IMG/VR virus record: IMGVR_UViG_3300018412_000005
DNA: 38,532 nucleotides
Strand: one strand, 5' to 3'
Source: a virus
Part shown: piece after piece, positions 124-35,995 of the stretch
Numbering within the stretch: position 1 is the stretch's first letter
Layout: each line of letters opens with the position of its first letter
Translations under genes and position numbers: made by a program
The notes under the pieces: generated by a model
Told to the model about the DNA's origin: nothing
What the model saw: the letters and a program-made list of their open reading frames with translations, nothing else
Databases searched by the model: none

Positions 124-3100
124 CAGTATCAAGAGGGGATGCAGAATTAATCCAGGCTGAGGAAAAGGCGGCAGAAGAAGCGCCGGCGCCAGTTGGTGAA
201 ACAACTCAGCAGGCAGTTAGTGCAGATAATCGCCCGGCCAAGATGTTTACCATTACGCCAGATATGGGAATTGGTGAAGGTGGCCAGAAAACTAAATTCA
301 AGAACAACCTTGAAGCAATCAAGATCCTGAAGTCTCTTGAGGCTGAAGGACGCCAGGCAACGCCAGAAGAACAGCAAGCGCTTGCGCGTTATGTTGGTTG
401 GGGCGGTATTCCTCAAGCGTTCTATGGTGATGCAGGTAAAGTATCAAAGGGGTGGGAGAAAGAGGCGGCACAGCTTAAAGAGTTGCTTACAGATGCTGAG
501 TATGATGCAGCGCGCCGAAGCACGCAGGATGCCCACTACACAAGCCAGGAGATTGTTACTTCAATCTGGAAGGCTGTTAAGGATATGGGTTTTACTGGTG
601 GCCGAGTGCTTGAGCCTTCAGTTGGTACTGGTAACTTTTTAGGGATGATGCCGGCAGGTGTTCGAGGAAAAAGCCAGATCACCGGCGTAGAGCTTGATCA
701 TATTACAGGCGGGATTGCTTCACACCTTTACCCAGGCGCAAACATTAAAACGCCAATGGGCTTTCAAGACTTCACTATGCCTGATGGTTACTTTGATCTG
801 GCAATAGGGAACCCGCCATTTGGGAGCCAGAAGCTATATGACGGTAAGCGCAAAGACTTATCTAAGTTCAGCATTCACAACTACTTCTTTGCAAAAAGCC
901 TGGATGGCCTGAAGCCTGGCGGCGTACTTGCAATGGTTGTCTCTAACCGCCTTATGGATGGTCAAAGCAATCAGGCAGCGCGTGAGTACATGGCTAATCG
1001 CGCAGACTTCCTTGGTGCGGTCAGGTTGCCTAATAACGCATTCCTAAAGAATGCCGGCACAGAAGTTACCACTGACATTGTTTTCCTTCAGAAGCGAGAG
1101 GAAGGCACGCCGCGTAAAGGTACTTCATGGAAGCGTACTGAATCAGTGAAAGACGCCAACGGCATTGAAACACCACTGAATGAATATTTTGTAAAGAATC
1201 CCGACATGATGCTTGGTGAATGGGGTGCATACGGCTCAATGTATGGACCTAATGACCCGGCGCTTGTTGCGCGTGAAGGTCAGGACACTGGCGCATTGTT
1301 GCGTGAGGCATTGGCTAAGTTACCAAAAGGGATTATGGCAGAGTCAAAAGCGGCGCCGGCAAAAGAAGAAGTGAAGCTATCCACCAGCGTTGATAACGTC
1401 AAAGTTGGTAGCATGTTCATTGATGGCGGCAAGGTGATGGTTCGCCAGGATAATGAGCTTGGTAGTATTCAGGCTGAGCCGGTTGAGTTTGCCAGCGACA
1501 AAGCGCGCCAGCGCGTTGAGGGCATGATCAAGGTTCGTGATGTGTTCACGGACTTGAGGAAGGCCCAGCTTACTGAAGGCGTGAAAGATGCTGCGCTTGA
1601 CGCGTTGCGCACGCGTCTTAATCGTGAGTATGACGCGTTTGTTAAGGCGCATGGTCCAATAAACTCAGATGCCAACAAGCGCTTATTCCGTGATGATCCC
1701 ACCTGGCCGCAGATTGCAGCATTGGAAGAATCATTCGATAAAGGCATTACGCCTGCAATGGCAAAGAAAACCGGCGAGCAATCGCGCAAGCCAAGCGCAA
1801 GCAAGGCTGCAATTTTCTTCAAGCGTACTCAGTCACCATATAAAGCGCCTACCAAAGCGGCAACCGCCAAGGATGCAATGGCGGCAAGTCTTTCAGAGTA
1901 TGGCGCCATTGATATGGATTACATGGCGAAGCTTTACAACAAGACGCCAGGATACATTGCCAATGAGCTTGGTGATCTTGTGTATGAGGTTGAGCCTGGC
2001 CGATTTGAAACGCGTGACCAATACCTTAGCGGCAATGTTAAGCAGAAGCTTGCCCAGGCAAGGCAGCTTGCCAAGGTAGACAGTAAGTACAAGCGCAACG
2101 TGCAAGCGCTTGAGGCGGTCCAGCCTGAAGATATTGAGGCCGTTGACATTGATGTTAAGCCTGGCGCTCACTGGTTGCCGCGTGAAGATATGAAGTCTTT
2201 TGTGGATCATGTGCTTGGCAATGAAAGCGGTAAGGCCGTGTATATTCCGACCAATGCTAAGTGGTCTATTGATGGTGTGCCTACAGAAGCAGCGCGCTCG
2301 CGTTGGGGTACTGACCGCGTGCAGGTGACTGATATTGTGGCAGCAGCTGCAAACCAGAAGCAGATTGTTGTGCGTGATCGCATTGACGAAAACACAACAA
2401 GAGTGAATGAGGCAGCTACCAATGCGGCCAATGAAAAGGTTGAGCGCTTAAAGGCTGAGTTTCGCCGTTGGGTATGGCAGGACGATGCGCGCCGTAGTCG
2501 GTTGACCAGGATTTATAACGACACATTTAACACCGATCGCTTGCGAGAGTTTGACGGTGGCCATCTTACATTCCCTGGCAAAGTAAGTGATGACATTATC
2601 AAGTTGCGCCCACACCAGGCTAATGCAGTTTGGCGTATCGTGCAGTCTGGAACTACCTTACTGGATCACGTTGTTGGTGCCGGCAAGACGTTCACTATGA
2701 TTGCTGGCGCTATGGAAATGCGCCGCATGGGCCGAGCTAAAAAGCCTATGTTTGTTGTTCCTAATCACCTTGTTGGCCAGTGGGCAGAGGACTTTACCAA
2801 GCTTTACCCTGGCGCTAATGTGCTGGCAGCCACCAAGAAGGACTTTGAGAAAGGAAACCGCAAGCGCCTATTTGCGCGCATTGCCACCGGTGATTGGGAT
2901 GCTGTTATTGTCGCTCACTCATCGTTCGGTAAAGTGGAAATGGATAAGGAGTTCCAGGAGCGATTTATCAATCAGCAGATCCGTGACATTGATGAGGCTA
3001 TCCAGAATATCCGGGCCCAGGATGGGCAGAAGTCACGAAGCATTAAGCAGATTGAGAAGCAGAAAGAGCGCCTTCAGGAAAAGCTGAAGAAGCTGTTTGA

Positions 3101-6100
3101 TGCAGAAAACAAGGATGACAACCTAACCTTTGGTGAGCTTGGTGTTGACGCTCTATTCCTGGATGAAGCGCATGAGTTTAAGAACCTTGGCTTTGCCACC
3201 AGCATGACCCGCGTTGCCGGCCTTGGTAATCCGCAAGGCAGCCAGAAGGCGGCAGACCTGTTTATGAAAACTCAGTTTGTCCTGGAAAAGACTGGCGGCA
3301 ATAACGTGGTATTTGCTACCGGTACGCCGATCAGCAATACCATGGCTGAAATGTACACCATGCAGCGTTATCTTGATTACCAGACGCTACAGGACCAGGG
3401 CATTGCACACTTTGACGCATGGGCGCGCATGTATGGCGAGGTTGTTACTGATTGGGAGTTGTCACCTTCAGGCACCTATAAGCTAAACAGCCGCTTCAGT
3501 AAGTTCGTGAATATCCCTGAGCTTATGCAGCGCTACCTATCGTTTGGTGATGTTATCAACCGTGATGACATTAACCGCCAGTTGGCAGCCCAGGGCAAGC
3601 GCCTACCAGTGCCAAAGGTTAAAGGCGGCAAGCCTCAGAATGTTGTGGTTACTCGCAGTGATGATCAGGCCGCTTATATCGGTGAACCTGTCACTGATGA
3701 GAATGGCCGCGAGTCATACCCTGAAGGAAGTCTTGTTTGGCGTGCTGAGCACTTGCCTAAGAAGCCTGAAAAGGGCGCGGATAACATGCTGAAGATTATG
3801 AGTGACGCCAGGAAGGCGGCGCTTGATATGCGCATGATAGACCCGGCCATGTACGGTGACTACGAAGGCAGCAAGGTAAATCAGGCGGCAGACAACATTA
3901 AGCGCATTTACGACCAGTGGAGTACAGACAAAGGCGCGCAGCTGGTATTCATTGATCTGAGCACACCGAAAGGAGCTAAGGCAAAAGAGGCGGCCAGAAT
4001 CCGCGATCTGATTGAAAAAGCAGATAACGGTGATGAGCGTGCCCAGGATGAGCTCGACAAGATGAGCCCTGATGAATTGTCAGCGCTTGACGGTGATTTC
4101 AGTGTTTACGATGACTTGCGCCAAAAGCTGATCAATAAGGGTATTCCTGAGCAGGAAATAGCATTTATTCACGATGCCAATACCGAGCTTCAGAAAGAAG
4201 AATTGTTTGGCAAGGTGCGTAGTGGCCGCATTCGTGTGCTGTTTGGCTCTACCGCAAAGATGGGCGCAGGCATGAACGTCCAAGAGCGCCTAGTTGCTCT
4301 ACACCACATGGATGCACCATGGCGGCCTTCAGACCTTGAGCAGCGTGAAGGCCGTATTATTCGCCAGGGCAACAAGCTGTATGAGCGCGATCCTGATGGG
4401 TTTGAGGTGGAGATTAACCGCTATGCAACCAAGCAAACGCTTGATAGCCGTATGTGGCAGACCATTGAAACCAAGGCGCGATTCATTGAGCAGGTCCGTA
4501 AAGGCAATACAAAGACGCGAGAAATTGAGGACGTTGGCGGTGAAGCAAGTAACGCAGCTGAAATGAAAGCGGCTTCAAGTGGTAATCCTCTTATCCTGGA
4601 AGAAATGGACTTGCGCCAGAAAATCAGAAAGCTTGAACAGCTTGAAGATGAGCATGACCGCGAGCAGTTCCGTATTCGTGACCAGGTGCGCCGCCTGAAG
4701 CTACGCATTGAAACCGGCAAGGATAGAATGCTGAAGTTCACGCGTGACGCAAAACAGGCCGAGAAGGCGCCAAAGGACTTTGCGATCACGATCAACAGCG
4801 GAAAGTACGACAAGCACAAGGAGGCTGGCCAGGCATTGCTGGCGGCAGCAAACAAGATGGCTGATGCAGGCCAGGAAACAAAGGCTATTGGTGAGTATGC
4901 AGGCTTTAAATTGCGCCTGGATAATATCAGTGGTGCTGAGTTCGTGATCACCATAGAGGGTGAGCAGGAATATCAGGTAGACATTCCAGATATTGCTGAA
5001 GCTGATCCTACTGGCTTGGCTATGCGAATCACCAACACAGTGAAGCGCATTAGTGCAGATGCCAAGAATGAAGCAGAGCTTATCAAGCAAGCTGAGCGAG
5101 ATATACCAGACCTTGAAGGGCAAATCGCTGATTGGTCACAGGCTGATGAGCTTGCAAAGGTTAAGGCGCGTCATGCCTTGGTTATTGCTGAGCTAAAGCC
5201 AAAGAACAAGGACCAGGAGGAAATTGAACAGGACGGTACAAGCGCCATGATGTATAACGCCGGTGCCGATGTTCCAATGCCTAACTGGCGTCCAACATAT
5301 CGCCAGGCTGGTGTACCTAAGCGCCCTGAAGGTGATGAGTTTGCTATTGGCGATCGGACTGTGAAGTTAAAGCCAGAGGATCAGCCAACTCGCCGTGAGG
5401 GTGTGCGCGTCATGGTTGAGGATGTTATAGGCCCAAGGCTTTATCAGGGCAAAGTGAAAGGCAAGTCAAAGCTTGGCTTCTACCGTAAGAACAACAGTGA
5501 GGTTCGTGTTGCCAATTATGATGATGTTGAGGTGATGGCCCATGAAATGGCTCACTACCTTGATATGCACTACCGCTACAACAAGCGCTTTACTAGGGCA
5601 TACAAGGACACCAAGTATCGTGATGAGGTTGCCAGCCTGAGCTACACAAGCCAGAAAAACCTGAAGTTTAAGGAAGGCTTTGCTGAATTTGTGCGCCTAT
5701 GGCTTACCAACTATGCAGAGGTAAAAGCGGCGGCGCCATTGTTTACTCAGCGCTTTGAGCAAGTGCTTGCTGAGGATTCAACACTCAACAAGAAAATGGT
5801 TAAGCTGCAGGATGAAATGCACCGGTGGTACCTGCAAGGCGCTCGCGCTCAGTTGCGCGCTAAGTCTGGTAAGGAGTTGAGTCAGTCTCAGCAGATCATT
5901 CAGTACATGCAGTCATACCCACTTGAGCGCTATCGCCAGGAAGTGATTGATAAGATCCATGCTGCAAAGGTGGTTGAGCGCACGCTTCATGGTGAGGTTC
6001 GTGATGCAGCGTTAAGCCCATTTAAGCAGTTCCAGCTTATCAATGGTGCGGAGTCGTTACATGAAGCGATCCTGAAAGATGGCACACCTTCACTTGCTGA

Positions 6101-8558
6101 AGATGGAACCTTTGAGTTTAACGGAAAGGGGCTTAACCAGGTGTTTTGGCCGGTATCAAAACATGGCTGGAAGCGTTTTGACTTGCTTATGGATTACTTC
6201 AAGGCTCGCCGGGCCAATGAGCTTATGAAGCAGGGCCGTGAAAGGCTGTTCACAAAGCAAGAGATTGAGGCCGGTTTAAAGCTTGGTGTTACATACCCTG
6301 AGTTCCGTGATGTGTTTAAGGAATATCAGGAGTTCAACAAGCGAATGCTGGACTTCTACGAGCAGATGGGTCTGATTGATGGGAAGCAGAAGCAAGCCTT
6401 TGCTGATGCCAACAAAAACTATGTTCCATTCCACCGGGTAATAGAACGCCTTGAAGATGGTGATCAGGCTGGAACAACGTCAATCGGCAAGCGCCTAAGT
6501 GGCGGTACTCAGAACGTGCGCGACATTGCTGAAAACATTGTTGAGGGCCTTTACTCAAATATCCGGGCAGCATTGATTGCCAGGGCCAAGCAGACGCTAT
6601 ACCGGGATATTATGACTAGCCAGGATGGATCACTGTTTGCTGTTAAGTTGTCGCCAGATAGCAAGCTGGTTAAGGTCGAGCAAACTCAGATGGCAGCAAA
6701 AATTGCTGAAGCCATGGCTGATGTTGGCCTAACAGTAAGTAAAGATGGAATGATTATGGCCGGCGATCCTGATGCGCAGATCACTGATGTTGATGATATT
6801 GCCCAGGCTCTTGAGTCTAACCCTGATCTGCTTAACTTCTGGACCTTTGGGCACAAGCCAACGACAGCAGAAACATACGTTGATAGCGCCATCATTGATG
6901 GTAAGCGCACCTGGTTTGAGGTTCGCAACCCATTGCTGGTGGACATGCTAACCGGTATGAGAGGGTTCAAGTCTGGCGCGTTGCTTAATGCCATGTTCCG
7001 CGTGAAGAACCTGCAAACTCGCACTGTAACGTCAATGCTTCAGTTCCTTGGTCCAAACGCTGTGCGCGATACGCTTAGCGCCTTTGTGATCAGCAAAAAC
7101 AAGTTCATTCCGGTATGGGACACCTTGATTGGTATGGGGCACGCCATATTCCACACCAAGCTTTACCGTGAGTTTCGTTTGCATGGTGGCGGCTATGGTA
7201 CCCGTATCGAGGCAAGAACAGAGGAAACCAGAAAGCGCCGGCAGCTTGATCTGCCAAGCCGCAATATGTGGGATACCGCAGCCAAGTTTCTGGCTGGCTA
7301 TGACCGCTTTGCTAGTGCATTTGAGTATGGTAGCCGCCTTGGTGATTATCGCCGTGGCCGCCAAGCTGGAAAGAATGCACTTGAGGCTGCATGGGAGGCC
7401 AGGGAAGTTGCAACAGACTTTAGCAAGATGGGGCGCAATGAGTTGTGGGCCAAGTTCCTTCGGACAGTTCCGTTTATGAATGCCGGTATCCAGGGCCTGG
7501 ATAAAACGGCGCGAGAGATATTTGAGTTGCGCGGTGAAATGAAGGGTAGCAACCTGGCAAAACTTGATGATGCGAAGGTGCGATTCCTGGCGGCTGGTGG
7601 CGTGCTTACACTTATGACAGTGATCTTATGGTTGCTGAATGAGGATGATGACCGGTACCAGGCATTGACGCCAGACCAAAAGGCGCGCTTCTGGTGGATC
7701 TTCCTTCCTGGTGCAGAGAAGCCTCTTAAAATTCCGCGTCCATACGATATAGGGCATTTGTTCGCAACCATACCAGAAGTTAGCCTTGACTATATCAAGG
7801 AGCGTGATGGTAAAGAGGCAGCGCAGACGCTGGCGTGGACCTTTGCTAATACGCTTGGCGTTGGCGATTACCCTGGCATATTCCAGCCAATGATTGAGGT
7901 GGCAAGGAATAAGAAGTTTACCGGCTCGCCTATCGTCCCTGAAAGGTTGATGCACGTTCCTAATGAGTATCAATTCACTGATCGCACGCCGCAGCTGTAC
8001 CGCAATCTTGGTGAGGCGCTTGGTGTGTCGCCATTGGTGGCTGAGCATTACATGAAAGGCTACTTGCGTTATGTTGAGGCGTATATCTCAGATGGCAGTG
8101 AAGCCTTGCTGTGGAATGAAAAAGAGTGGGGGGCGCGTCCATTCGTTAAAGAGCCGATTGATTACTTGACCTATCAATTCCAGGGGCAGCGCGTTCCTTA
8201 TCGAACTAAATGGACTGAAGGTTATTTTGAGCTCAAGAAAAAGGCAGCCGGCGCTAAGTCTGCATTTGACCTACTGACCGCACAAGCAATACGCGATCAG
8301 CAGCCAATGAAAGACTTTTCAGCAGACAAAGTTAACCAGTTGCTTATCAGCATGGATAACGCCTTTAGACAGATTGATAGCGCATTCAAGGACCAGGAAA
8401 CGGTTCTTGCAGCAATCAAGTACAACCCGGACCTAACCAGGGATGAGAAGGAAAGGAGAATAGAAAACTGGTACCAGCAGAAGAACAATGCTCTTGCGCA
8501 GTTCTATGAACAGGCCAACAAGGCCCTGGAACAAGTTGAAAGCGCTCTTTCCCAATAG
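1..8558 (+). CDS. Giant polyvalent virion protein, C-terminal 2852 codons (continues from 36003..38409; whole ORF 3654 aa)
   Basis: Frame 3 has no stop from base 3 to the TAG at 8556-8558. The track's ATG at 243 is internal. I translated frame 3 by hand from 36003 to 38532 and from 3 to 243 and found no stop. It carries methyltransferase, SNF2 helicase and HExxH motifs (see sub-features). Confidence 0.85.
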   Translation, partial: DGQGESPVSTSGAERTGRGEQRGTDVPGSVADEKPSDAGRPVSRGDAELIQAEEKAAEEAPAPVGETTQQAVSADNRPAKMFTITPDMGIGEGGQKTKFKNNLEAIKILKSLEAEGRQATPEEQQALARYVGWGGIPQAFYGDAGKVSKGWEKEAAQLKELLTDAEYDAARRSTQDAHYTSQEIVTSIWKAVKDMGFTGGRVLEPSVGTGNFLGMMPAGVRGKSQITGVELDHITGGIASHLYPGANIKTPMGFQDFTMPDGYFDLAIGNPPFGSQKLYDGKRKDLSKFSIHNYFFAKSLDGLKPGGVLAMVVSNRLMDGQSNQAAREYMANRADFLGAVRLPNNAFLKNAGTEVTTDIVFLQKREEGTPRKGTSWKRTESVKDANGIETPLNEYFVKNPDMMLGEWGAYGSMYGPNDPALVAREGQDTGALLREALAKLPKGIMAESKAAPAKEEVKLSTSVDNVKVGSMFIDGGKVMVRQDNELGSIQAEPVEFASDKARQRVEGMIKVRDVFTDLRKAQLTEGVKDAALDALRTRLNREYDAFVKAHGPINSDANKRLFRDDPTWPQIAALEESFDKGITPAMAKKTGEQSRKPSASKAAIFFKRTQSPYKAPTKAATAKDAMAASLSEYGAIDMDYMAKLYNKTPGYIANELGDLVYEVEPGRFETRDQYLSGNVKQKLAQARQLAKVDSKYKRNVQALEAVQPEDIEAVDIDVKPGAHWLPREDMKSFVDHVLGNESGKAVYIPTNAKWSIDGVPTEAARSRWGTDRVQVTDIVAAAANQKQIVVRDRIDENTTRVNEAATNAANEKVERLKAEFRRWVWQDDARRSRLTRIYNDTFNTDRLREFDGGHLTFPGKVSDDIIKLRPHQANAVWRIVQSGTTLLDHVVGAGKTFTMIAGAMEMRRMGRAKKPMFVVPNHLVGQWAEDFTKLYPGANVLAATKKDFEKGNRKRLFARIATGDWDAVIVAHSSFGKVEMDKEFQERFINQQIRDIDEAIQNIRAQDGQKSRSIKQIEKQKERLQEKLKKLFDAENKDDNLTFGELGVDALFLDEAHEFKNLGFATSMTRVAGLGNPQGSQKAADLFMKTQFVLEKTGGNNVVFATGTPISNTMAEMYTMQRYLDYQTLQDQGIAHFDAWARMYGEVVTDWELSPSGTYKLNSRFSKFVNIPELMQRYLSFGDVINRDDINRQLAAQGKRLPVPKVKGGKPQNVVVTRSDDQAAYIGEPVTDENGRESYPEGSLVWRAEHLPKKPEKGADNMLKIMSDARKAALDMRMIDPAMYGDYEGSKVNQAADNIKRIYDQWSTDKGAQLVFIDLSTPKGAKAKEAARIRDLIEKADNGDERAQDELDKMSPDELSALDGDFSVYDDLRQKLINKGIPEQEIAFIHDANTELQKEELFGKVRSGRIRVLFGSTAKMGAGMNVQERLVALHHMDAPWRPSDLEQREGRIIRQGNKLYERDPDGFEVEINRYATKQTLDSRMWQTIETKARFIEQVRKGNTKTREIEDVGGEASNAAEMKAASSGNPLILEEMDLRQKIRKLEQLEDEHDREQFRIRDQVRRLKLRIETGKDRMLKFTRDAKQAEKAPKDFAITINSGKYDKHKEAGQALLAAANKMADAGQETKAIGEYAGFKLRLDNISGAEFVITIEGEQEYQVDIPDIAEADPTGLAMRITNTVKRISADAKNEAELIKQAERDIPDLEGQIADWSQADELAKVKARHALVIAELKPKNKDQEEIEQDGTSAMMYNAGADVPMPNWRPTYRQAGVPKRPEGDEFAIGDRTVKLKPEDQPTRREGVRVMVEDVIGPRLYQGKVKGKSKLGFYRKNNSEVRVANYDDVEVMAHEMAHYLDMHYRYNKRFTRAYKDTKYRDEVASLSYTSQKNLKFKEGFAEFVRLWLTNYAEVKAAAPLFTQRFEQVLAEDSTLNKKMVKLQDEMHRWYLQGARAQLRAKSGKELSQSQQIIQYMQSYPLERYRQEVIDKIHAAKVVERTLHGEVRDAALSPFKQFQLINGAESLHEAILKDGTPSLAEDGTFEFNGKGLNQVFWPVSKHGWKRFDLLMDYFKARRANELMKQGRERLFTKQEIEAGLKLGVTYPEFRDVFKEYQEFNKRMLDFYEQMGLIDGKQKQAFADANKNYVPFHRVIERLEDGDQAGTTSIGKRLSGGTQNVRDIAENIVEGLYSNIRAALIARAKQTLYRDIMTSQDGSLFAVKLSPDSKLVKVEQTQMAAKIAEAMADVGLTVSKDGMIMAGDPDAQITDVDDIAQALESNPDLLNFWTFGHKPTTAETYVDSAIIDGKRTWFEVRNPLLVDMLTGMRGFKSGALLNAMFRVKNLQTRTVTSMLQFLGPNAVRDTLSAFVISKNKFIPVWDTLIGMGHAIFHTKLYREFRLHGGGYGTRIEARTEETRKRRQLDLPSRNMWDTAAKFLAGYDRFASAFEYGSRLGDYRRGRQAGKNALEAAWEAREVATDFSKMGRNELWAKFLRTVPFMNAGIQGLDKTAREIFELRGEMKGSNLAKLDDAKVRFLAAGGVLTLMTVILWLLNEDDDRYQALTPDQKARFWWIFLPGAEKPLKIPRPYDIGHLFATIPEVSLDYIKERDGKEAAQTLAWTFANTLGVGDYPGIFQPMIEVARNKKFTGSPIVPERLMHVPNEYQFTDRTPQLYRNLGEALGVSPLVAEHYMKGYLRYVEAYISDGSEALLWNEKEWGARPFVKEPIDYLTYQFQGQRVPYRTKWTEGYFELKKKAAGAKSAFDLLTAQAIRDQQPMKDFSADKVNQLLISMDNAFRQIDSAFKDQETVLAAIKYNPDLTRDEKERRIENWYQQKNNALAQFYEQANKALEQVESALSQ
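285..1260 (+). other. N6-adenine DNA methyltransferase domain inside the giant ORF
   Basis: AdoMet motif VLEPSVGTGNF lies at nt 606-638 and the catalytic AIGNPPFG has NPPF at nt 810-821. Motif I precedes motif IV. The preceding LARYVGWGG segment is typical of the methylase-helicase fusions of plasmids and phages (the P1 DarB / COG4646 type, from memory). Confidence 0.75.
1600..1638. repeat. 11-bp-phased hexamer array L1 (4 units)
   Basis: ACGCGT at 1600, ACGCGT at 1611, TCGTGA at 1622 and ACGCGT at 1633. Confidence 0.8.
2600..4380 (+). other. SNF2/DEAH-box helicase domain inside the giant ORF
   Basis: Motifs seen: LRPHQ (2604), Walker A GAGKT (2676-2690), DEAH (3162-3173), ATGTPISN, RVLFGSTAKMGAGMNVQ, and motif VI QREGRIIRQG (4341-4370). 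Confidence 0.8.
5541..5555 (+). other. HExxH zinc-metallopeptidase motif (HEMAH) inside the giant ORF
   Basis: The sequence VMAHEMAHYLD is followed about 38 residues later by KEGFAEF, a possible third-ligand Glu as in gluzincins. Confidence 0.55.
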
Positions 8559-11968: not shown

Positions 11969-11998
11969 TAAAAAAGGCCCTTCGGGGCCTTATTTCAT
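11969..11998. terminator. Bidirectional intrinsic terminator between convergent operons
   Basis: Hairpin AAGGCCC-TTCG-GGGCCTT (11974-11991) has an A-run on one side and a T-rich run on the other. It overlaps the stop codon of the leftward gene. Confidence 0.75.
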
Positions 11999-12307
11999 TC
12001 CTTTAATGGTAACTATCCCTTTCTCAATTAGCCGGCGCCATGTGCGAACCATTGCCCGGCGCATGTACCACTCGCGTTCTTCACCTGTCATTGACGCGTC
12101 ATTGTTTCGCCTGTCTATCGCATCATGGCAAGCGTGGCACGCATAGCACGCGCTAATATCGTCTGACTTGGTGCTCATGCCGTTTGATTCGTCAGGCAAA
12201 TGAGCAAGGATTGTAGTTTGCCAGTTGAAGTTGCACACGCCGACAATTTGCAGCGTGCATTCCTCATCCCTGGCGCTATCACGTAGTTTCTTGGATTCGA
12301 TTTTCAT
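11990..12307 (-). CDS. DUF1364 / YbcO-like putative nuclease
   Basis: Motifs ECTLQIVGVCN...TILAHL...ACYACHDAIDRR resemble E. coli DLP12 YbcO (RECQVRIPGVCN...VLAHI...ACSACHDEIDRR). I prefer the ATG at 12307 over the GTG at 12313. Confidence 0.7.
   Translation of the reverse strand: MKIESKKLRDSARDEECTLQIVGVCNFNWQTTILAHLPDESNGMSTKSDDISACYACHACHDAIDRRNNDASMTGEEREWYMRRAMVRTWRRLIEKGIVTIKGMK
12072..12099. repeat. 11-bp-phased hexamer array L8 (3 units, middle one degenerate)
   Basis: TCGCGT at 12072, ACCTGT at 12083 and ACGCGT at 12094. Confidence 0.5.
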
Positions 12308-14486: not shown

Positions 14487-15380
14487 TTAGTCTGGTAAGT
14501 CGTCAATCATCGCGCTGGCTCTATCGGCCTGGTTTCTTACGCGGCTTTCAAATTGCTCAAGGGTTTCTGTGCCTGGTCCGTTCAAGTAGGTTGGTTGGAA
14601 CTTGGCTACGTTGTTGGCGAATTGCTCAACCTTGTCACCAGATCGGCAAATCAAAGTCAAATCATCGTAAACAGTGCCTGAGTCATTTTGCCCCATGTGG
14701 TGAGGTGACTTTGCACAACCTTCGATTGCCTGCTTGATCTGGTCAACCGTGTAACCTTCCTTCAGCCTTGCCTCAATGCACTTCTTGCGCTTGTCGGTAA
14801 GTTTGGCTTGTGAGGTTTTTCCCATGGTTGTGATCCAGTGGTCGAAAACTTCTTTCACCTGGTCGCGTGTTTGGCGCGACATATTATTCCTTTCCCCTTC
14901 CCTTTCCTTTTCCCTTTCCTTTTCCCCTTCTGTGCTGTGCTCTACGCGTGGTTCACGCGTGACAAGTTCAGTGTTACTTATTTGCTCAGGCTCAGTAATT
15001 GCGGGGCTTTCAGGCTTGGCTCCCTCATTGGTGAGGGTACCAACTGACATATCAGGCAGCGTTGACTCACTTTCCCGGTTGTTTATGTGCTGGTGGCGCG
15101 TAAAAGTAGGAATGCAGCCATAAAACTCACCTTCAACTTCGTACTTAACGAGAAAGTCACGCGATGCTAACGCGTCAATTACGCGTTCAAAGTCGAGATC
15201 ATCATAGGGCAATATATCCAGCTTTAATTGCTTAGGGCGCCAGCGGAAGCGCCCGGCTTTATCACAAACACAGAACAAGCCGATGAAGGCCAGGCGAACC
15301 GGTAAGCCGGTTTCTAGTTCTAAGTCGTGTAGGTCCTCATGCCTGAATAAGTCAGGCTTTACTGTTCGTATGCGTGCCAT
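14487..15380 (-). CDS. Replication initiator (lambda O analogue) with phage conserved C-terminal domain
   Basis: The N-terminus IRTVKPDLFRHEDL...RLAFIGLFCVCDKAGR is typical of prophage replication proteins. It is followed by an acidic low-complexity linker (EGEKEREKEREGER) and a C-terminal VFDHW...KLTDKRK...EGY...I..AI segment. It is the second gene of the leftward operon, after the HTH. Confidence 0.6.
   Translation of the reverse strand: MARIRTVKPDLFRHEDLHDLELETGLPVRLAFIGLFCVCDKAGRFRWRPKQLKLDILPYDDLDFERVIDALASRDFLVKYEVEGEFYGCIPTFTRHQHINNRESESTLPDMSVGTLTNEGAKPESPAITEPEQISNTELVTREPRVEHSTEGEKEREKEREGERNNMSRQTRDQVKEVFDHWITTMGKTSQAKLTDKRKKCIEARLKEGYTVDQIKQAIEGCAKSPHHMGQNDSGTVYDDLTLICRSGDKVEQFANNVAKFQPTYLNGPGTETLEQFESRVRNQADRASAMIDDLPD
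14863..14879. repeat. 11-bp-phased hexamer pair L2a
   Basis: TCGCGT at 14863 and GCGCGA at 14874, immediately left of the homopyrimidine tract. Confidence 0.65.
14887..14931. repeat. 45-nt homopyrimidine tract with three tandem 12-mers
   Basis: Only C and T occur on the + strand from 14887 to 14931. The 12-mers are cctttccccttc (14889-14900), cctttccttttc (14901-14912) and cctttccttttc (14913-14924). The tract encodes the (K/G)ERE linker of the initiator. Confidence 0.9.
14944..14960. repeat. 11-bp-phased hexamer pair L2b
   Basis: ACGCGT at 14944 and 14955. Together they form the inverted repeat ACGCGTG-gtt-CACGCGT, immediately right of the homopyrimidine tract. Confidence 0.8.
15148..15186. 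repeat. 11-bp-phased hexamer array L3 (4 units)
   Basis: ACGAGA at 15148, ACGCGA at 15159, ACGCGT at 15170 and ACGCGT at 15181. Confidence 0.8.
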
Positions 15381-15673: not shown

Positions 15674-15702
15674 TTGACACCTGTATTATATGGCTGTAAA
15701 TT
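15674..15702 (+). promoter_or_regulatory. Candidate rightward early promoter
   Basis: TTGACA (15674-15679), a 17-nt spacer, then TAAATT (15697-15702). It lies in the 137-nt divergent intergenic region. Confidence 0.45.
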
Positions 15703-19443: not shown

Positions 19444-19808
19444 GCACCAAAGTAGACCAATTTATTGCCGACCTTGATGGCGGCGTATTCGAGGAAAAGC
19501 TTTCAGCAATCCTTAGTGATGTTGCCGCGTCAGTGATTGACCATGGCAAAAAGGGCACTGTCAGTATCACGCTTGATATTAAGCAGATCGGTAGTAGTCA
19601 CCAGGTACAGATTGACCATGTACTGAAGTACAAGCGCCCAACTTCAAAAGGTTCAATCAGTGAGGACAACTCCACCAGCACGCCAATGCACGTTGGCACC
19701 CGTGGTGCGCTTTCGTTCTTCCCTGAGAATCAGGGGCAAATGTTCGATAAGAAAGGCGAACCTTCAGACAAAGTGAGCGCTTTCCCGAACACCAAGAAAG
19801 TCAACTAA
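19440..19808 (+). CDS. Hypothetical protein (122 aa)
   Basis: An ATGA start/stop overlap couples it to the previous gene. I recognise no motif. Confidence 0.6.
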   Translation: MSTKVDQFIADLDGGVFEEKLSAILSDVAASVIDHGKKGTVSITLDIKQIGSSHQVQIDHVLKYKRPTSKGSISEDNSTSTPMHVGTRGALSFFPENQGQMFDKKGEPSDKVSAFPNTKKVN

Positions 19809-19813
19809 TAGCC

Positions 19814-19830
19814 GGGCGCCTGGTGCGCCC
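19814..19830 (+). other. Intercistronic GC hairpin without U-tract
   Basis: GGGCGC-CTGGT-GCGCCC, followed by the direct repeat GTAAAAAAT at 19834 and 19853. Confidence 0.5.
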
Positions 19831-19865
19831 TATGTAAAAAATCTTACTTAAAGGTAAAAAATATT

Positions 19866-20687
19866 ATGGATAAATCAGCAATCGAACAGATCCAACAGGC
19901 CCAAACAGCAGAGGCAGTACAGGCTGCATTGGATAAAGTTAACCTTCAAACGCCAGTAGTTGTGACGCCTGAAAAGTTCGACATTCAGAACCTTGAGCGC
20001 TACCTGGCTGGCCGCGTTCGATATCGTGGCAATATGAGCACAATCAGCCCTGAAGATTTTGTGCGCTACTGTACTGACCATGACCGCACTGGTGCCGCGT
20101 GCTTCGTTGACCCTGAAGCTATGAATGCGGTGACAGTGTTCAACCTTGGCACAGAAGAACAGCCAGGCCATGCAGACTACACCGCCAAGCTTCAGCTTCA
20201 GAAAACAGCGGAGTATCGCGCTGTGCTTGGTGTTGATGGCAGCAAGATGAGCCAAAAGACGCTGGCAGAGTTCTTGGAAGATTGGGGTGATCATATCCAG
20301 GCATACAATGCTGAAGGTGATGCTATTGCATTAACCAAGGCAATCAGCGCAGTGCGCCGCCTGACTATCGAATCAAGCCGTAAGGAAGATCACGAAGTTC
20401 AGGACTTCAAGGCAAGCCGTAGCGCCCTGGAAAATGTTGAAGCGCGCAGCGATCACGGTATGCCTTCAGGGTTCCGCTTCACCTGTATACCTTACAACGG
20501 CTTGGCAGGACGAAGTTTTGAATTGCGTCTATCTGTGCTGACTGGCGGTGAAGCGCCGGCGCTGGTGGCTCGAATTAAACGCCTTGAAGCAGTTCAGGAA
20601 GAAATGGGCCAAGAGTTCATGGAGTTGTTGAACGACAGCTTTGAAGATTATGAGCTGATCACTTACTTAGGTAAGTTCAGCGCTTAA
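19866..20687 (+). CDS. YfdQ / DUF2303-like protein
   Basis: It is 273 aa. QPGHADYTAKLQLQKTAEY...MSQKTLAEFLEDWGDHI resembles the DUF2303 core. It lies in a phage recombination-module context. Confidence 0.55.
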   Translation: MDKSAIEQIQQAQTAEAVQAALDKVNLQTPVVVTPEKFDIQNLERYLAGRVRYRGNMSTISPEDFVRYCTDHDRTGAACFVDPEAMNAVTVFNLGTEEQPGHADYTAKLQLQKTAEYRAVLGVDGSKMSQKTLAEFLEDWGDHIQAYNAEGDAIALTKAISAVRRLTIESSRKEDHEVQDFKASRSALENVEARSDHGMPSGFRFTCIPYNGLAGRSFELRLSVLTGGEAPALVARIKRLEAVQEEMGQEFMELLNDSFEDYELITYLGKFSA

Positions 20688-21983: not shown

Positions 21984-22013
21984 GACCGTTGCGTGGCCGG
22001 TCATTAAAGATAG

Positions 22014-22052
22014 TCGCGTTATTGTTGCGTGCTTCACGCGTGAGGCACGCGT
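22014..22052. repeat. 11-bp-phased hexamer array L4 (4 units, intergenic)
   Basis: TCGCGT at 22014, TTGCGT at 22025, ACGCGT at 22036 and ACGCGT at 22047. The array also folds as GCGTGC-ttcacgcgtgag-GCACGC. Confidence 0.8.
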
Positions 22053-22103
22053 TAACTTGTTAGCTGTGAAAATAGACCGCCAGCGAAACCGATTATAAAG
22101 AGG

Positions 22104-22131
22104 CTGACTTATATTGACATTGGTTTATAAT
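22104..22131 (+). promoter_or_regulatory. Candidate promoter of the lysis/packaging operon
   Basis: CTGACT (22104-22109), a 16-nt spacer, then perfect TATAAT (22126-22131). It lies in the 182-nt gap after ssb. TATTGACA occurs twice here (22112, 22140) and once in the early control region (15672). Confidence 0.45.
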
Positions 22132-22165
22132 CAACCCTGTATTGACAATAAAAACGGGGTGTTCT

Positions 22166-23742: not shown

Positions 23743-24366
23743 ATGAGTGTAACGCTGACAGAAGAACAGCTTGAGCTTGGCAGTAAGCTGACACCGCTTC
23801 AGCGTAAGACTGTTATCAACCTGGCTACAGGGAAGATGAGCCAGCGTGAGGCGTATTACGCAGCTGGTGGCAAGACAAAGAGCGAGAAATCAGCTGATGC
23901 AATAGTTAGTCGTATGCTAACTGACGCTAAGGTGAAGAAGTTTTATGAGTCACTAATGAATGCGGCCGCCAGTGATGCAGTAATGACAAGACAGGAGGCG
24001 CTCGAAAGGCTCACGCGTGCAGCACGCGTCACGATGACAGATATTGCTGAATTTGCTGAGCAGGTTGTTGGTGAAGATGAAGATGGCAACCCGGTAAAGC
24101 AAACAGTGTGGCGAATCAAGAACAGTGATGAGCTCACGCCTGAAGCGGCAGCGGCAATCAAGTCTGTTACAGCCACCAAGTTTGGGCCAAAGCTTGAATT
24201 GCATGATCCGCATAGCGCCATCAAGCAGATTGCAGACCTGGAAGGATGGAACGCGCCAAGTAAGCATGAAGTAACCGGCAAGGATGGTAAGCCATTGCAG
24301 ATACAGGCTGATGTGAAGTCACCTGACATTGCAGAGGCTATCAACAAGGTACTTGAGCGCCTATGA
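23743..24366 (+). CDS. terS: Terminase small subunit
   Basis: LTPLQRKTVINLATGKMSQREAYYAAG is a typical TerS N-terminal HTH. It lies immediately upstream of TerL with an ATGA overlap. Confidence 0.7.
   Translation: MSVTLTEEQLELGSKLTPLQRKTVINLATGKMSQREAYYAAGGKTKSEKSADAIVSRMLTDAKVKKFYESLMNAAASDAVMTRQEALERLTRAARVTMTDIAEFAEQVVGEDEDGNPVKQTVWRIKNSDELTPEAAAAIKSVTATKFGPKLELHDPHSAIKQIADLEGWNAPSKHEVTGKDGKPLQIQADVKSPDIAEAINKVLERL
24013..24029. repeat. 11-bp-phased hexamer pair L5 (inside terS)
   Basis: ACGCGT at 24013 and 24024. Confidence 0.8.
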
Positions 24367-25997: not shown

Positions 25998-28064
25998 ATG
26001 CTACCAGGTAATGAACCAATTAAGACCAGGGATGATGACAGCCAAGAGGCAATACTTCAGGAAATACGAGAGCGAGCAGCGCACGCTGTTACTTGTTGGA
26101 AGCATAACTTTGATGCAGCCCAGGAAGATATTTCATTCCTGGCCGGTCAACAATGGCCTGAGTCTGTGCGCAAGGAACGTGAGGACGAGGGCCGCCCATG
26201 CTTGACGCTGAACAAGTTGCCTCAATACGTTGACCAGGTATTGGGTGATCAGCGCCAGAATCGCCCTGCAATCCAGGTGCATCCAGTCGAAGCCAATGCC
26301 ACCAAGGATACCAGCAAGGTGCCAAACGTGGCCGGCACTTCTGATTACAGCCTGGCAGAAGTGTATGAGAGCCTGATCCGCAACATCGAGTACACCAGCA
26401 ACGCAGAAGCGCACTATGACAACGCATTCCAGCACGCCGTTGAAGGTGGCTTTGGTTGGTTGCGCGTTCTCACCAAGTACAGCGCTGATGATGCCTTTGA
26501 CCTTGACCTGTGCATCAAGAGTATTCACAACCGCTTTGCTGTGTTGATGGACCCGGACGCAACAGAGCCAGACTACAGTGATGCAAACTGGTGTTTTATC
26601 AGCGAGCGCATGAGCAAGGCAGAGTTTAAAAAGCGGTACCCAGGAAAAGCCGTTGGTGATCTGAGTGATGCTGAGCGTGGTGAGTACAGCTGGTGGACCA
26701 ATGAAGAAGGTGTGCGTGTATCTGAATACTTCTACCGTGAACCGGTAACTCGCAAGCTGTTATTGCTCAGTGATGGCCGTACCGTGTGGGAAGATGAAGT
26801 AAAGGATGTGCTTGACGAGTTGCGCGAGCTTGGCACGACAGTCACGCGTGAAAGACGCGTCAAAACCTACAAAGTTAAATGGATGAAGGTTACTGCATAC
26901 GATGTGCTAGAAGGCCCGGTTGATTGGCCTGGCTCAACCATTCCTGTGGCACCTGTGCTTGGTAAGGAAATGGTTATCGGTGACAAGACCTATTACCGTG
27001 GTCTGATTCGCTTTGGTAAGGATGCCCAGCGTATGCACAACTACTGGATGACAGCAGCAACAGAGCGTGTTGCATTGGCACCAAAGGCCCCATGGGTAGC
27101 GCCAGCAGAATCCATTGAAGGCTATGAGGAAGAATGGAACCAGGCAAACCGCAAGAACATGAGCGTTCTACGCTATAACGCTTTACCAGGTGTTGACCGT
27201 CCTCAGCGTGATATGCCGGCCAGTATGCCAGCGGCAGAGCTTCAGCTTGCATTGAGCGCTACCGATGAAATGAAAGCAACTATTGGCTTGTATGATGCCA
27301 GCGTTGGCGCACAAGGGAATGAGCAAAGCGGCAAGGCTATTCTTGCGCGCCAGCGCCAGGGTGATCGCGGTACCTTTGCCTATATCGACAACCTGAGCCG
27401 GGCTATTCGCCGTGTTGGGCAGATCCTGATTGAGCTTATCCCGCGAGTGTATGACAGCGAACGAGTGTTGCGCTTGCGCTTCCAGGATGGTGAAGGTGAT
27501 TGGGTTCAGATAAATCAGATGGTCATGGATGAGGAAACACAGAAGCCGGTCCTGGTTAACGATATTGCAGCAGGTAAGTTTGATGTGACTGTGAAGGCTG
27601 GCCCAAGCTATCAAACACAGCGCATGGAAGCAGCAGACAGTTTAATGCAGTTTGTTCAGGCTGTGCCGGCAGCTGGTGGCGTGGTCCTTGATCTTATCGC
27701 CAAGAATATGGATTGGCCTGGCGCGCAGGATATTGCACGCCGACTACAGAAAACATTGCCGCCTGGCATTCTTGATCAGGATGAAATGGAGGAAGCAGGT
27801 ATTGAACCGCCTCAACCGTCACCAGAGCAGCAAGCCAATATGGCACAGGCTCAAGCCGATATGGAGAAAGCCAAGGCAGACACAGCGAAAGCCCAGGCCG
27901 ATATGGCAATGGCACAAGCTAAGACAGCTGAAGCACAAGCGAAGTTGGCAGAAATAGAGCAGGCGGCCATGATGGCAGGTCCTGGAACATTGGAAGATAC
28001 AGTGCGTAACCTGGTTGCTGAGGCTATGGCCGAGTTAATGGCTCAGAGCCAAGGGAATGCTTAA
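25998..28064 (+). CDS. Portal protein (P22-like)
   Basis: It is 688 aa and follows TerL. It has LTLNKLPQYVDQVLGDQRQNRPAIQV and a C-terminal Ala/Gln/Lys-rich helical extension resembling the P22 portal barrel. Confidence 0.85.
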   Translation: MLPGNEPIKTRDDDSQEAILQEIRERAAHAVTCWKHNFDAAQEDISFLAGQQWPESVRKEREDEGRPCLTLNKLPQYVDQVLGDQRQNRPAIQVHPVEANATKDTSKVPNVAGTSDYSLAEVYESLIRNIEYTSNAEAHYDNAFQHAVEGGFGWLRVLTKYSADDAFDLDLCIKSIHNRFAVLMDPDATEPDYSDANWCFISERMSKAEFKKRYPGKAVGDLSDAERGEYSWWTNEEGVRVSEYFYREPVTRKLLLLSDGRTVWEDEVKDVLDELRELGTTVTRERRVKTYKVKWMKVTAYDVLEGPVDWPGSTIPVAPVLGKEMVIGDKTYYRGLIRFGKDAQRMHNYWMTAATERVALAPKAPWVAPAESIEGYEEEWNQANRKNMSVLRYNALPGVDRPQRDMPASMPAAELQLALSATDEMKATIGLYDASVGAQGNEQSGKAILARQRQGDRGTFAYIDNLSRAIRRVGQILIELIPRVYDSERVLRLRFQDGEGDWVQINQMVMDEETQKPVLVNDIAAGKFDVTVKAGPSYQTQRMEAADSLMQFVQAVPAAGGVVLDLIAKNMDWPGAQDIARRLQKTLPPGILDQDEMEEAGIEPPQPSPEQQANMAQAQADMEKAKADTAKAQADMAMAQAKTAEAQAKLAEIEQAAMMAGPGTLEDTVRNLVAEAMAELMAQSQGNA
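26822..26860. repeat. 11-bp-phased hexamer array L6 (4 units)
   Basis: GCGCGA at 26822, GCACGA at 26833, ACGCGT at 26844 and ACGCGT at 26855. Confidence 0.75.
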
Positions 28065-33949: not shown

Positions 33950-34443
33950 TGGATGAGTTAACGCCGGCGCAGGTCCACCAGCTATTGGCAGAGCAGGTAA
34001 ACGAAAAAATAGAGGCCATGGAAGAAGTCATGCTCGATCATGAGCAGGTTGAAATGCCAGTAGAGCACCGCTTTGTAAATGGCATGTATGCACGTGAGAT
34101 AACTATTCCAAAAGGCACGCTACTTACAGGGCGCGTTCACAAGTTTGGTTATGTGGATATTATGCTTAGTGGTGATATTACAGTTGCAACGCCTGATGGT
34201 GTAAAGCGTTTAACAGGTGTGAATATCATGGAAGGCGTACCAGGTCGCAAGCGTGCTGGATATGCTCACGAAGATACGCACTGGATCACTGTACATAAAA
34301 CGGATGCCACAAGCCCTGAAGGCATTGAAGATATTTTAACGGTATTCAGCATGGCTCAATTCCGGGAGTTACCGCCTGGCGAGCGTGCAGCGCTACCAAA
34401 CGAACAGGAGAATGAGCCATGTCAGTTGTTGCAGCAGCAGTAG
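33949..34443 (+). CDS. Hypothetical cupin-like beta-barrel protein (164 aa)
   Basis: HRFVNGMYAREITIPKGTLLTGRVHKF...IMLSGDITV resembles a small phage beta-barrel family. The call is weak. Confidence 0.4.
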   Translation: MDELTPAQVHQLLAEQVNEKIEAMEEVMLDHEQVEMPVEHRFVNGMYAREITIPKGTLLTGRVHKFGYVDIMLSGDITVATPDGVKRLTGVNIMEGVPGRKRAGYAHEDTHWITVHKTDATSPEGIEDILTVFSMAQFRELPPGERAALPNEQENEPCQLLQQQ

Positions 34444-35105
34444 TTGGTAGCGCCGTTGTTGGCGCGTATTCAGCAAACAAGTCTAGCAAGGCGGCGTCAA
34501 AGGCGTCACAACAAGCAAGTGATGCTCAAGTGCAAGCTAACCGCGAAACCATTGAGTTTCAGCGAGAGGTTTTTGATCAGCAGCGTGAAGATAACGCCCC
34601 ATGGCGTGAGATTGGTACGCAGGCCCTTGGTCAGCTTCAGGCAGGTATTGCTTCAGGAGAGTTTGACCCAAGCAATTTTAAGTTTGAAGCGGATCCCGGT
34701 TATCAATTCAGGCTGCAAGAAGGTGTTAATGCGCTTGACGCTAGTGCTTCTGCGCGAGGAAAGCTTCAGTCAGGAGCTCAGCAAAAGGCGCTTACCAGAT
34801 TTGGGCAAGATTTTGCCAGCAATGAGTATGCAAATGCCTATGCTCGCAATGCAGGATCTAAGGCCATGAACTTCAACCAGCTTGCATCATTGTCAAATGT
34901 TGGACAGGTAGCAAACCAGGCAGACGCCAATGCGCGAACTAACATGGCTAACAATGTCACTCAGAGTACGATTGCAACTGGCAATGCGCTTGCTCAAAAC
35001 GCCATTAACCAGGGTAACGCACAGTCGCAGGCTTATCAGGGGTATGCCCAGGCAGCAAACCAGGGTATGCAGAACTATCTTCTTTACAGCATGATGGGAG
35101 GTTAA
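34419..35105 (+). CDS. Putative internal virion / ejection protein (228 aa)
   Basis: It has a hydrophobic N-terminus and a DPGYQFRLQEG...ASASARGKLQSG...EYANAY core that I recall as common in podovirus internal proteins. It sits in the P22 gp7/gp14 position. Confidence 0.5.
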   Translation: MSVVAAAVVGSAVVGAYSANKSSKAASKASQQASDAQVQANRETIEFQREVFDQQREDNAPWREIGTQALGQLQAGIASGEFDPSNFKFEADPGYQFRLQEGVNALDASASARGKLQSGAQQKALTRFGQDFASNEYANAYARNAGSKAMNFNQLASLSNVGQVANQADANARTNMANNVTQSTIATGNALAQNAINQGNAQSQAYQGYAQAANQGMQNYLLYSMMGG

Positions 35106-35107
35106 TC

Positions 35108-35995
35108 ATGGCTAATGCTTTTGGAATTGACTTGGGCCAGGTTTACCGGACCGCAGAGGCAGTTAAGGGTGCGCGTCAGTCTCGCGAGCAGAACGCGTTA
35201 ATGATGGACTGGAAGAAAGAGGACCGCGAGGCAGCGCGCCAGCGAGGTAACGCTCTTGCTGATTTGCGCTCAAAGGCGTCAGCTGGTGATCCTCAGGCTA
35301 TGCAGGAGCTAAACGCTTTTGACCCTGAAGAAGCTAAGAAGATGCTTGAGTCACTAAGTAAGATGGATGATCGCCAGCGCCAGCAGACACAAGAGAACAT
35401 TGATGCGATCGGAAAAATGTCAGCCTATGTTCTTCAGTCTGAAAACCCTGAGCAGGCATACGAGCTTGCCAGGCAAAGCGTATCACCAGAGCTCGCAGCA
35501 AAGATGCCTGAGCAATACGACCCTAACTTCCTTCAAATGCAGCTTGCCAGAGCTCGCCAGGTTGATGAGTTGCTACAGAACCCTGAGCGCATGACGTTTG
35601 GCACAGAGGACCGACTGTATAAGGATGGCCGCGTTATCGAACGTACAACAAGCAGTCAAGAGCTTGACCGCCAGACAAGTCGGCAAAACGCGTTAACGCG
35701 TGCCAGTGGCGATGGCGGTCTAAAGTCAGCTGATGAGTCATTGATGTATCGTCAGGCTGGTGAGTTGCTTGGTGGTTTGTTTGATCAGCAAGGCAACCTT
35801 CAAAACCTTGACCCGGCCACACGCGGCAAGGTCCAGTCTATCGCAACTGAAGCGGCTAAAATTTATAGCCAAGGTGGCGTTACTCGCTCGCAAGCTGTAA
35901 CACAAGCAGCGAGAAAGCTTGGTATTCAGGTTCAAGATTTGGGGCAAAGTGGTAATATAGACCGCAACAAATTACTTGAAATGTATTCACAGTGA
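35108..35995 (+). CDS. Putative internal virion / ejection protein (295 aa)
   Basis: It is Q/R/E-rich and helical, with a GGAGG RBS. It lies directly upstream of the giant ORF in the ejection-protein slot. Confidence 0.45.
   Translation: MANAFGIDLGQVYRTAEAVKGARQSREQNALMMDWKKEDREAARQRGNALADLRSKASAGDPQAMQELNAFDPEEAKKMLESLSKMDDRQRQQTQENIDAIGKMSAYVLQSENPEQAYELARQSVSPELAAKMPEQYDPNFLQMQLARARQVDELLQNPERMTFGTEDRLYKDGRVIERTTSSQELDRQTSRQNALTRASGDGGLKSADESLMYRQAGELLGGLFDQQGNLQNLDPATRGKVQSIATEAAKIYSQGGVTRSQAVTQAARKLGIQVQDLGQSGNIDRNKLLEMYSQ
35171..35198. repeat. 11-bp-phased hexamer array L7 (3 units)
   Basis: GCGCGT at 35171, TCGCGA at 35182 and ACGCGT at 35193. Confidence 0.75.

Follow-up and report, generated by a model that had tools for sequence, protein, structure and literature searches.

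A 38,532-bp viral DNA sequence (IMG/VR record IMGVR_UViG_3300018412_000005; this entire stretch is referred to below as the window) was found to carry arrays of the hexamer ACGCGT in which successive units start exactly 11 bp apart. Three clusters of such units lie inside the gene for the replication initiation protein (Rep), and five more are dispersed over other parts of the genome. The clusters in rep are most likely the iterons of an origin located within the initiator gene and read by the N-terminal domain of Rep, for which we use the name RepN. Taken as a whole, a system in which the ACGCGT repeats are Rep iterons, the origin lies in rep and the dispersed sites also bind Rep, with a role as initiator sink or in handcuffing favoured for the latter, appears to us moderately probable. 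An origin within the initiator gene is a classical, known arrangement, and its motif class is undescribed; the unusual and new part is the dispersal of sites into late genes. The window is a complete, circularly permuted podovirus genome, and the Vibrio vulnificus phage VvAW1 (NC_020488), whose orientation is opposite, is ~92% identical to it.

The initial annotation of this DNA listed nine loci at which hexamers with a CGCG core (consensus ACGCGT) were phased at 11 bp, and the coordinates of each of them proved correct on re-checking. Its estimate of 165–175 CGCG tetramers agrees with the actual number (168), and the 10 CGCG pairs at spacing 11 were recovered, whereas we counted seven pairs at spacing 22 in place of the reported five. 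A spacing of 33 accounts for three further pairs, and all remaining spacings up to 60 for one or two each, except for spacing 20 (four). The hexamer ACGCGT itself occurs 25 times, compared to 6–10 occurrences expected from Markov models of order 0–3, and there are six exact ACGCGT pairs 11 bp apart, starting at 1600, 14944, 15170, 22036, 24013 and 26844. Exact pairs were absent from all 300 dinucleotide-preserving shuffles, in which CGCG pairs at 11 bp had a mean of 0.5 and a maximum of 3 (the means at spacings 11, 22 and 33 were 0.49, 0.47 and 0.41). We also generated 1000 codon-preserving shuffles that kept every protein sequence and the codon usage and left non-coding DNA unshuffled. The means here were 1.0 exact pair, which is due to the non-coding pair that stays in place, 2.1 CGCG pairs at 11 bp and 12.6 ACGCGT, and in each of the 1000 shuffles the counts of exact pairs, of ACGCGT hexamers and of CGCG pairs (spacings 11 and 22) stayed below those observed. 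A similar excess at spacing 11 was thus seen in neither type of control (0/300 and 0/1000), and the earlier statement that codon usage or a peptide motif cannot account for the arrays, one of which is non-coding, holds. Fifteen of the 25 ACGCGT are members of arrays and the other 10 are single, at background level; the whole excess comes from the arrays.

One part of the initial description did not stand. Five of the listed units lack the CGCG core and are fill-ins between or beside true units, namely TCGTGA at 1622, ACCTGT at 12083, ACGAGA at 15148, TTGCGT at 22025 and GCACGA at 26833. The first of these reads TCGCGA in two related contigs (C2 and C4). In addition, one of the nine loci is doubtful: the cluster in the HNH gene (A2, 12072..12099) consists of TCGCGT and ACGCGT 22 bp apart, and its first unit is missing in contig C1 and in VvAW1. 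We regarded A2 as weak and left it out of the system.

Rep (14487..15380, minus strand) is a protein of 297 aa that matches PHROG 16167 (E=5e-115). Seven CGCG-core units in three clusters are found in its gene, all within 14863–15186. Cluster 1 (15159..15186, nt 195–222 of rep) is composed of ACGCGA, ACGCGT and ACGCGT with 11-bp phasing, cluster 2 (14944..14960, nt 421–437, in the linker region) of two ACGCGT, and cluster 3 (A3, 14863..14879) of TCGCGT and GCGCGA, again 11 bp apart. Cluster 3 can also be read as an inverted repeat, GTCGCG-N7-CGCGAC (14862–14880). Among the four relatives with sequence here, its hexamers do not vary and a single spacer base is all that differs. This inverted repeat was scored as terminator-like on the plus strand, i.e., antisense to rep. 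Between clusters 2 and 3 lies a 45-nt tract (14887..14931) that is homopyrimidine on the plus strand and homopurine on the coding strand, where it encodes the EGEKEREKEREGER linker of Rep. Nowhere else in the window do purines or pyrimidines run uninterrupted for 20 nt or more, and the tract stands where an AT-rich block might be sought, no such block being present next to the origin repeats. The tract is a candidate unwinding element or triplex-prone DNA. It looks like a part of the origin because in 83 of 101 distinct related rep regions the iterons are likewise succeeded by a purine run of 20 nt or more.

The hexamers in rep rotate through all three codon phases, which bears out the reading-frame independence noted initially, and they are maintained by specific codon choices. 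The sequence T-R-x-x-R-V, encoded by a pair, is conserved in the linkers of homologs that otherwise cannot be aligned. Therefore, it is the DNA that constrains the protein and not the reverse.

RepN comprises residues 1–110 of Rep (nt 15380–15051) and is predicted to be a winged-helix domain. No Pfam family was detected for these residues at E<=0.01, and a sequence search found no solved homolog. The AlphaFold model (predicted local distance difference test score of 91) has a helix-turn-helix (HTH) plus beta-wing layout, and its fold matches, to ArsR, MarR, Fur and TubR winged helices, are weak and generic (E>=0.015). Judging from its distribution, which is described below, RepN most likely reads the ACGCGT iterons. 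The C-terminal part of Rep shows weak matches to 'O-like' and DnaD-like PHROG families. A hidden Markov model search of all six-frame open reading frames (ORFs) detected no second RepN-like protein in the window, and another binder of this type, such as an HNH-nuclease fusion, was ruled out by this search. Among phages in general, RepN is joined to varied C-terminal domains (proteins P0001–P0058), and fusions to HNH nucleases occur as well (P0043, PHROG 5718). In many GenBank records the rep gene is represented by two hypothetical ORFs or its N-terminal part is unannotated (e.g., 19450–19896 in Ralstonia phage GP4).

The layout of the rep clusters is shared by phages with quite different Rep proteins. 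In Janthinobacterium prophages (L007–L011 and L208–L210), whose Rep homologs are 46–47% identical to Rep, and also in GP4, three ACGCGT are present at nt 195, 206 and 217, followed by two or three units ~170 nt further and then by a purine tract. We also scanned IMG/VR with the DNA pattern alone (ACGCGT-N5-ACGCGT-N5-ACGCGT) and obtained at least 120 loci (this and all counts of loci and their flanks below are among the matches listed). A Rep homolog was encoded at 105 of the 120 loci, and any other protein of the window was common to at most eight. The initial annotation had named the O-like initiator, TerS, the Cro-like HTH protein and the DUF3268 protein as candidate binders; the first of these is favoured by this result, whereas homologs of the other three occurred at none of the 120 loci and were dropped as array binders. 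The part that the Rep homologs at these loci have in common is the N-terminal ~110 aa (38–74% identity), the C-terminal domain being common to just three of the first 80 loci. Thus, the earlier proposal that the arrays are iteron-like sites bound by a protein on one face of the DNA is supported by their co-occurrence with RepN in more than 100 phages.

We further examined 116 loci outside the VvAW1 group, mostly as a few kb around rep, together with two complete genomes. All phased pairs (356/356) fell in the rep region, with peaks at +180–210 and +310–410 nt, and in 111 of the 116 loci the phased repeats lie inside the initiator ORF as they do in the window. In a set of 101 distinct origins, the consensus of the unit is (C/G)ACGCGT(G/C) and the usual architecture is two clusters of three or four units and then a purine run with a median length of 29 nt. 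The hosts of array-bearing phages have GC contents of 38–71% and belong to several phyla. More distant RepN proteins come with other repeats at the same place in rep: CTGATTC in E. coli phage HK639, Pseudomonas phage F10 and Vibrio phage 24E30.2, and GTTGCTTC in MW202713. The repeat type therefore co-varies with RepN, i.e., ACGCGT arrays follow RepN and not the C-terminal domain. The putative ACGCGT/RepN origins form a widespread, uncharacterised class; no description of the ACGCGT iteron motif or of the RepN domain class was found in the searchable literature, and the VvAW1 genome paper does not mention the repeats. Each of the in-gene repeat classes CTGATTC, GTTGCTTC and CGATACAACA (the last with a 12-bp period and belonging to the unrelated initiator of a sister phage described below) adjoins a purine-rich or pyrimidine-rich tract. 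These in-gene repeats are located at ~nt 480 of rep in HK639, F10 and 24E30.2 (L202, L203 and L205), at 7700–7800 in L206 and at 6210–6360 in L214.

The five dispersed clusters have the unit and the phasing of the origin and together contain ~14 units, compared to seven in the origin. A1 (1600..1638) lies in a gene for a giant DarB-like protein and reads ACGCGT, ACGCGT, (TCGTGA), ACGCGT, with fill-ins given in brackets. A6 (22014..22052; TCGCGT, (TTGCGT), ACGCGT, ACGCGT) is in the non-coding spacer between the SSB and endolysin genes. A7 (24013..24029), two ACGCGT encoding T-R-A-A-R-V, is in terS, and A8 (26822..26860; GCGCGA, (GCACGA), ACGCGT, ACGCGT), which encodes T-R-E-R-R-V, is in the portal gene. 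A9 (35171..35198; GCGCGT, TCGCGA, ACGCGT) is located near the start of gp02. A different arrangement was seen further along gp02, where two ACGCGT stand 8 bp apart (35688–35701, AACGCGTTAACGCGTG), off the 11-bp rule; the first of them is not kept in VvAW1.

Conservation was assessed with six VvAW1-like relatives (87–93% identity) built from IMG/VR pieces, VvAW1 itself being part of the comparison. Within the four dispersed perfect pairs, two of 48 hexamer positions were variable, compared to 29 of 140 spacer and flank positions (Fisher p=0.006), and for all six perfect pairs the corresponding numbers were 4/72 and 50/210 (p=4e-4). The array hexamers are thus more conserved than their spacers and flanks, and a lack of conservation in relatives, which the initial annotation had listed as refuting its reading, was not seen. 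A1 is conserved in 6/6 relatives and the A8 pair is invariant in every relative that covers it. The A6 pair (22036/22047) is present in all five covering relatives, although one or two outer bases of its second hexamer are altered in C1, C2 and C4. It persists even where both flanks have been exchanged or where an inserted 210-bp gene separates the pair from the promoter block downstream. In A9, the three CGCG cores persist in five of six relatives while the outer bases vary (C1 is unaligned over the first unit). A7 is present in four of five relatives and is absent from VvAW1. These patterns suggest that the dispersed clusters are held by purifying selection in the VvAW1-like lineage.

The spacer that contains A6 (21984–22165) is a mosaic junction, and relatives differ upstream of the A6 pair. 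The extra 210-bp gene (gp20) is found in VvAW1 and one contig, between the A6 pair and a strongly conserved block at 22086–22163. Two copies of the heptamer TATTGACA are found in this block along with a promoter-like site, and the early promoter-like site at 15674 has the same heptamer as its -35 region.

Comparison with homologous proteins that lack arrays indicates how the coding clusters were made. Nine such portal homologs have x-(R/K)-x-R-K-V in place of T-R-E-R-R-V, and TerS homologs have L-(S/T)-K-x-A-R in place of L-T-R-A-A-R-V, i.e., Lys where this phage has Arg. The gp02 homolog of a sister phage reads SRQQRKANAL, with no CGCG there, compared to ARQSREQNAL in the window. In all three proteins, the array-free homologs differ at exactly the needed residues and no indel is involved. 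The hexamers in the portal, TerS and gp02 genes were made by Lys-to-Arg-type replacements together with specific codons and not by insertion.

The sister phage (contig 3300039056_000005) is the nearest morphogenetic relative, its portal protein being 76% identical. Its replication module is of the lambda-P type, without RepN, and ACGCGT does not occur in its ~30 kb. The iterons that it does have (CGATACAACA, 12-bp period) are confined to its initiator gene; consequently, we rejected the idea that phages of this morphogenetic lineage disperse their iterons regardless of the initiator they use. Phased pairs outside rep were absent from the 879 kb of flanks of the 116 other loci, and also from the complete genomes of GP4 (61 kb) and Vibrio phage 1.176.O (36 kb). 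As far as the sequences compared go, the dispersed sites are restricted to the VvAW1-like lineage. Single ACGCGT in the flanks of other RepN loci have an observed/expected ratio of 0.51 (rank 7 of 64 palindromes), which is explained by general palindrome avoidance, and a specific avoidance of ACGCGT outside rep in these phages was discarded. Contigs of the sister group (L050, L052–L055, L057, L074, L075 and L214; portal proteins 63–79% identical, GC 53–66%) contain no ACGCGT in ~80 kb, compared to an expectation of ~11–16 over 72 kb (Markov models of order 1–3, with L214 left out). This absence could be due to restriction avoidance in their host.

A possible mechanism may be outlined as follows. 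The unit would be a 6–8 bp palindrome, (C/G)ACGCGT(G/C), repeated once per helical turn of 11 bp. Its palindromic nature means that two neighbouring units (ACGCGT-N5-ACGCGT) are a direct and an inverted repeat at once and form a symmetric 17-bp site suited to a dimer, with both halves on the same face of the helix. Such a site would suit a winged-helix dimer, and runs of three or four units would allow overlapping or cooperative occupancy along one face. At the origin in rep, the three clusters would make up the initiation complex together with the purine tract, while the dispersed clusters would hold Rep away from the origin. Every new genome copy would bring twice as many external as origin units, so that the growing amount of DNA would deplete free initiator. 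As an alternative to titration, origins might be paired (handcuffed) with external sites; either way, origin-dependent initiation would be curbed.

Several observations weigh against this mechanism. The case for binding of ACGCGT by Rep is one of co-occurrence alone, and the sink or handcuff role is suggested by analogy. The phage has no detectable plasmid or lysogeny functions, and relatives were found neither in GTDB bacterial genomes nor among PLSDB plasmids, so that a need for copy-number control is unproven; for the same lack of relatives, a plasmid-prophage lifestyle was dropped from consideration. Many phages that have the pair of Rep and iterons manage without dispersed sites, so that replication of this type can proceed in their absence. 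The six relatives on which the conservation test is based are 87–93% identical and share common ancestry, and the loss of A7 in VvAW1 means that individual sites are dispensable. Finally, all five clusters lie in the late region, which would fit a transcriptional role equally well, although this placement has a chance probability of ~0.25 and is not significant.

Transcriptional control, in which Rep or another dimeric protein acts at the dispersed clusters as a roadblock or activator and couples late expression to initiator level or copy number, would account for this location in the late rightward region. It would also fit the position of A6, which precedes a conserved promoter-like block (22104–22131) in the one non-coding gap of any size. 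However, the gene insertion makes the distance between A6 and this block differ by more than 200 bp from relative to relative, so A6 was rejected as a fixed-distance activator of a late promoter. Promoter-like sites are also absent after A7 and A8, and the five-of-five location could have arisen by chance as stated above; overall, we consider a transcriptional role unlikely. It is about equally improbable that the clusters are auxiliary or secondary replication elements, that is, extra origins or enhancers that loop to the origin. Identity of unit and phasing with the origin clusters, conservation in one lineage and the precedent of initiators that bind a second locus would agree with such a function. 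On the other hand, no dispersed cluster has the purine/pyrimidine tract found at the origin and in most related origins, and instead of two clusters plus a tract there are groups of two to four units scattered singly. No purine/pyrimidine tract and no exceptional AT block were found within 300 bp of A1, A7, A8 or A9, and A6 adjoins the promoter region only. The dispersed clusters are thus unlikely to be full origins, as they are without the tract.

A quite improbable explanation is that the arrays are bound by a factor other than Rep, such as a host factor, TerS (in a pac-like role), the Cro-like HTH protein, DUF3268 or a methyltransferase/restriction system. ACGCGT is a classical type II restriction palindrome, and pac sites are located in terS of some phages. 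One array does lie in terS here, and the phage encodes a Dam-family methylase as well as the DarB-like protein. However, the pattern-derived loci have Rep, and not TerS, the HTH protein or DUF3268, in common, the spread of hosts in GC content and phylum makes a host factor less likely, restriction would be expected to deplete its sites and not to enrich them in phase, and the window has no gene for a second RepN-like protein. None of the findings calls for methylation of ACGCGT, an idea raised with the initial annotation. Still less probable are RNA or single-stranded DNA hairpins. The palindromic unit makes any pair, ACGCGT-N5-ACGCGT, a potential stem-loop (6-bp stem, 5-nt loop), and A3 was indeed detected as a terminator-like hairpin. 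In 125 distinct pairs, however, there was no covariation that would extend the stem (complementarity of 0.35 at the inner positions vs 0.43 expected, and 0.25 vs 0.44 at the outer ones), substitutions in relatives are uncompensated, and arrays of three or four units at a fixed helical period better match recognition of duplex DNA. Finally, the idea that the pattern simply follows from base composition, codon usage or a recurring peptide motif, which would be in line with the encoding of T-R-x-x-R-V in the same frame by three pairs, deserves hardly any credence. Chance, composition and codon usage are refuted by both types of shuffle, which never reached the observed counts, one array is non-coding, and homologous proteins without arrays have Lys, not Arg, at the array positions.

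The rep clusters resemble the lambda origin within gene O. In both cases, repeats serving (here, putatively) as initiator sites lie in the coding sequence of the initiator, in or next to the linker between N-terminal DNA-binding and C-terminal domains, the sites are palindromic and suited to dimers, and a special tract follows the repeats. In contrast, RepN has no detectable sequence relation to lambda O and no Pfam match, the unit is a palindrome of 6–8 bp with an 11-bp period and not a 19-bp iteron, and the tract is homopurine/homopyrimidine and not AT-rich. Lambda is not known to have O sites outside ori, whereas this phage has five extra clusters.

External initiator sites with replication-curbing effects are present in P1 (incA) and E. 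coli (datA). The initiator G38P of SPP1 binds oriR, far from oriL, and the alpha protein of P4 binds crr. The KorB sites of IncP plasmids, the centromere sites of N15 and the E2 sites of papillomaviruses are dispersed palindromes, some of them inside genes, for one replicon-encoded protein. External sites for RctB in V. cholerae inhibit replication of chromosome II, and one site on chromosome I enhances it (PMC3937223). The dispersed clusters resemble the incA, datA and RctB sites in that clusters of the origin unit are present away from the origin; here they are conserved (2/48 vs 29/140 variable positions, as given above) and have been written in by amino-acid and codon changes. They differ in that the copy number of the other replicons has to stay constant, while no lysogeny or plasmid functions were detected in this phage, and in that small clusters in structural genes take the place of one dedicated non-coding locus. 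SPP1 (oriL/oriR) and P4 (ori/crr) also combine initiator repeats in or near the gene of the initiator with a distant locus, but in those phages it is a single extra locus with full boxes and not five scattered clusters without an unwinding tract. The KorB, N15 and E2 networks are distinguished by their proteins (ParB-type or E2), and unlike them the window has no partition genes and its dispersed sites are identical to the origin iterons.

It is conceivable, and we put it forward tentatively, that VvAW1-like phages evolved a genome-wide set of initiator sites in late genes (portal, TerS, gp02 and DarB) through Lys-to-Arg-type changes as a genome-copy counter, with which a non-integrating phage would stop initiation at its origin or set the timing of late functions, and that ACGCGT, RepN and the purine tract define a large uncharacterised class of origins. 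No description of such a control layer in tailed phages was found in the literature searched. If Rep binds these sites, the combination of iteron, initiator domain and purine tract would be recognisable from sequence in hundreds of phage and prophage genomes. The VvAW1-like lineage would then be a natural experiment in which structural genes have adapted to the phage's own initiator, and extra units at about twice the number in the origin should alter free initiator as DNA accumulates. This would offer a testable handle on origin-limited replication or late timing in a small lytic or pseudo-temperate phage, as well as short, transferable sequences with which the replication of phages or plasmids could be tuned.

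With regard to the remaining genome, the DarB-like giant ORF forms one open frame across the ends of the window (36003–38532 joined to 1–8558). For this reason the window is regarded as a circular permutation of the complete genome, cut inside the DarB-like gene. The VvAW1 genome paper reports turbid plaques and the absence of an integrase. A leftward early operon extends from 15598 to 11990 and encodes a 71-aa Cro/C1-type HTH protein, Rep, DUF3268, DUF6475, the Dam-family methylase, NinB and the HNH protein. A long rightward unit begins at the promoter-like site at 15674 and contains genes for recombination, SSB, lysis, terminase, head and tail and the DarB-like gene. Between the convergent tail-fibre and HNH genes lies a perfect GC-rich hairpin (11974–11991, AAGGCCC-TTCG-GGGCCTT) with flanking T runs on both strands, which is probably a bidirectional terminator that closes both operons.

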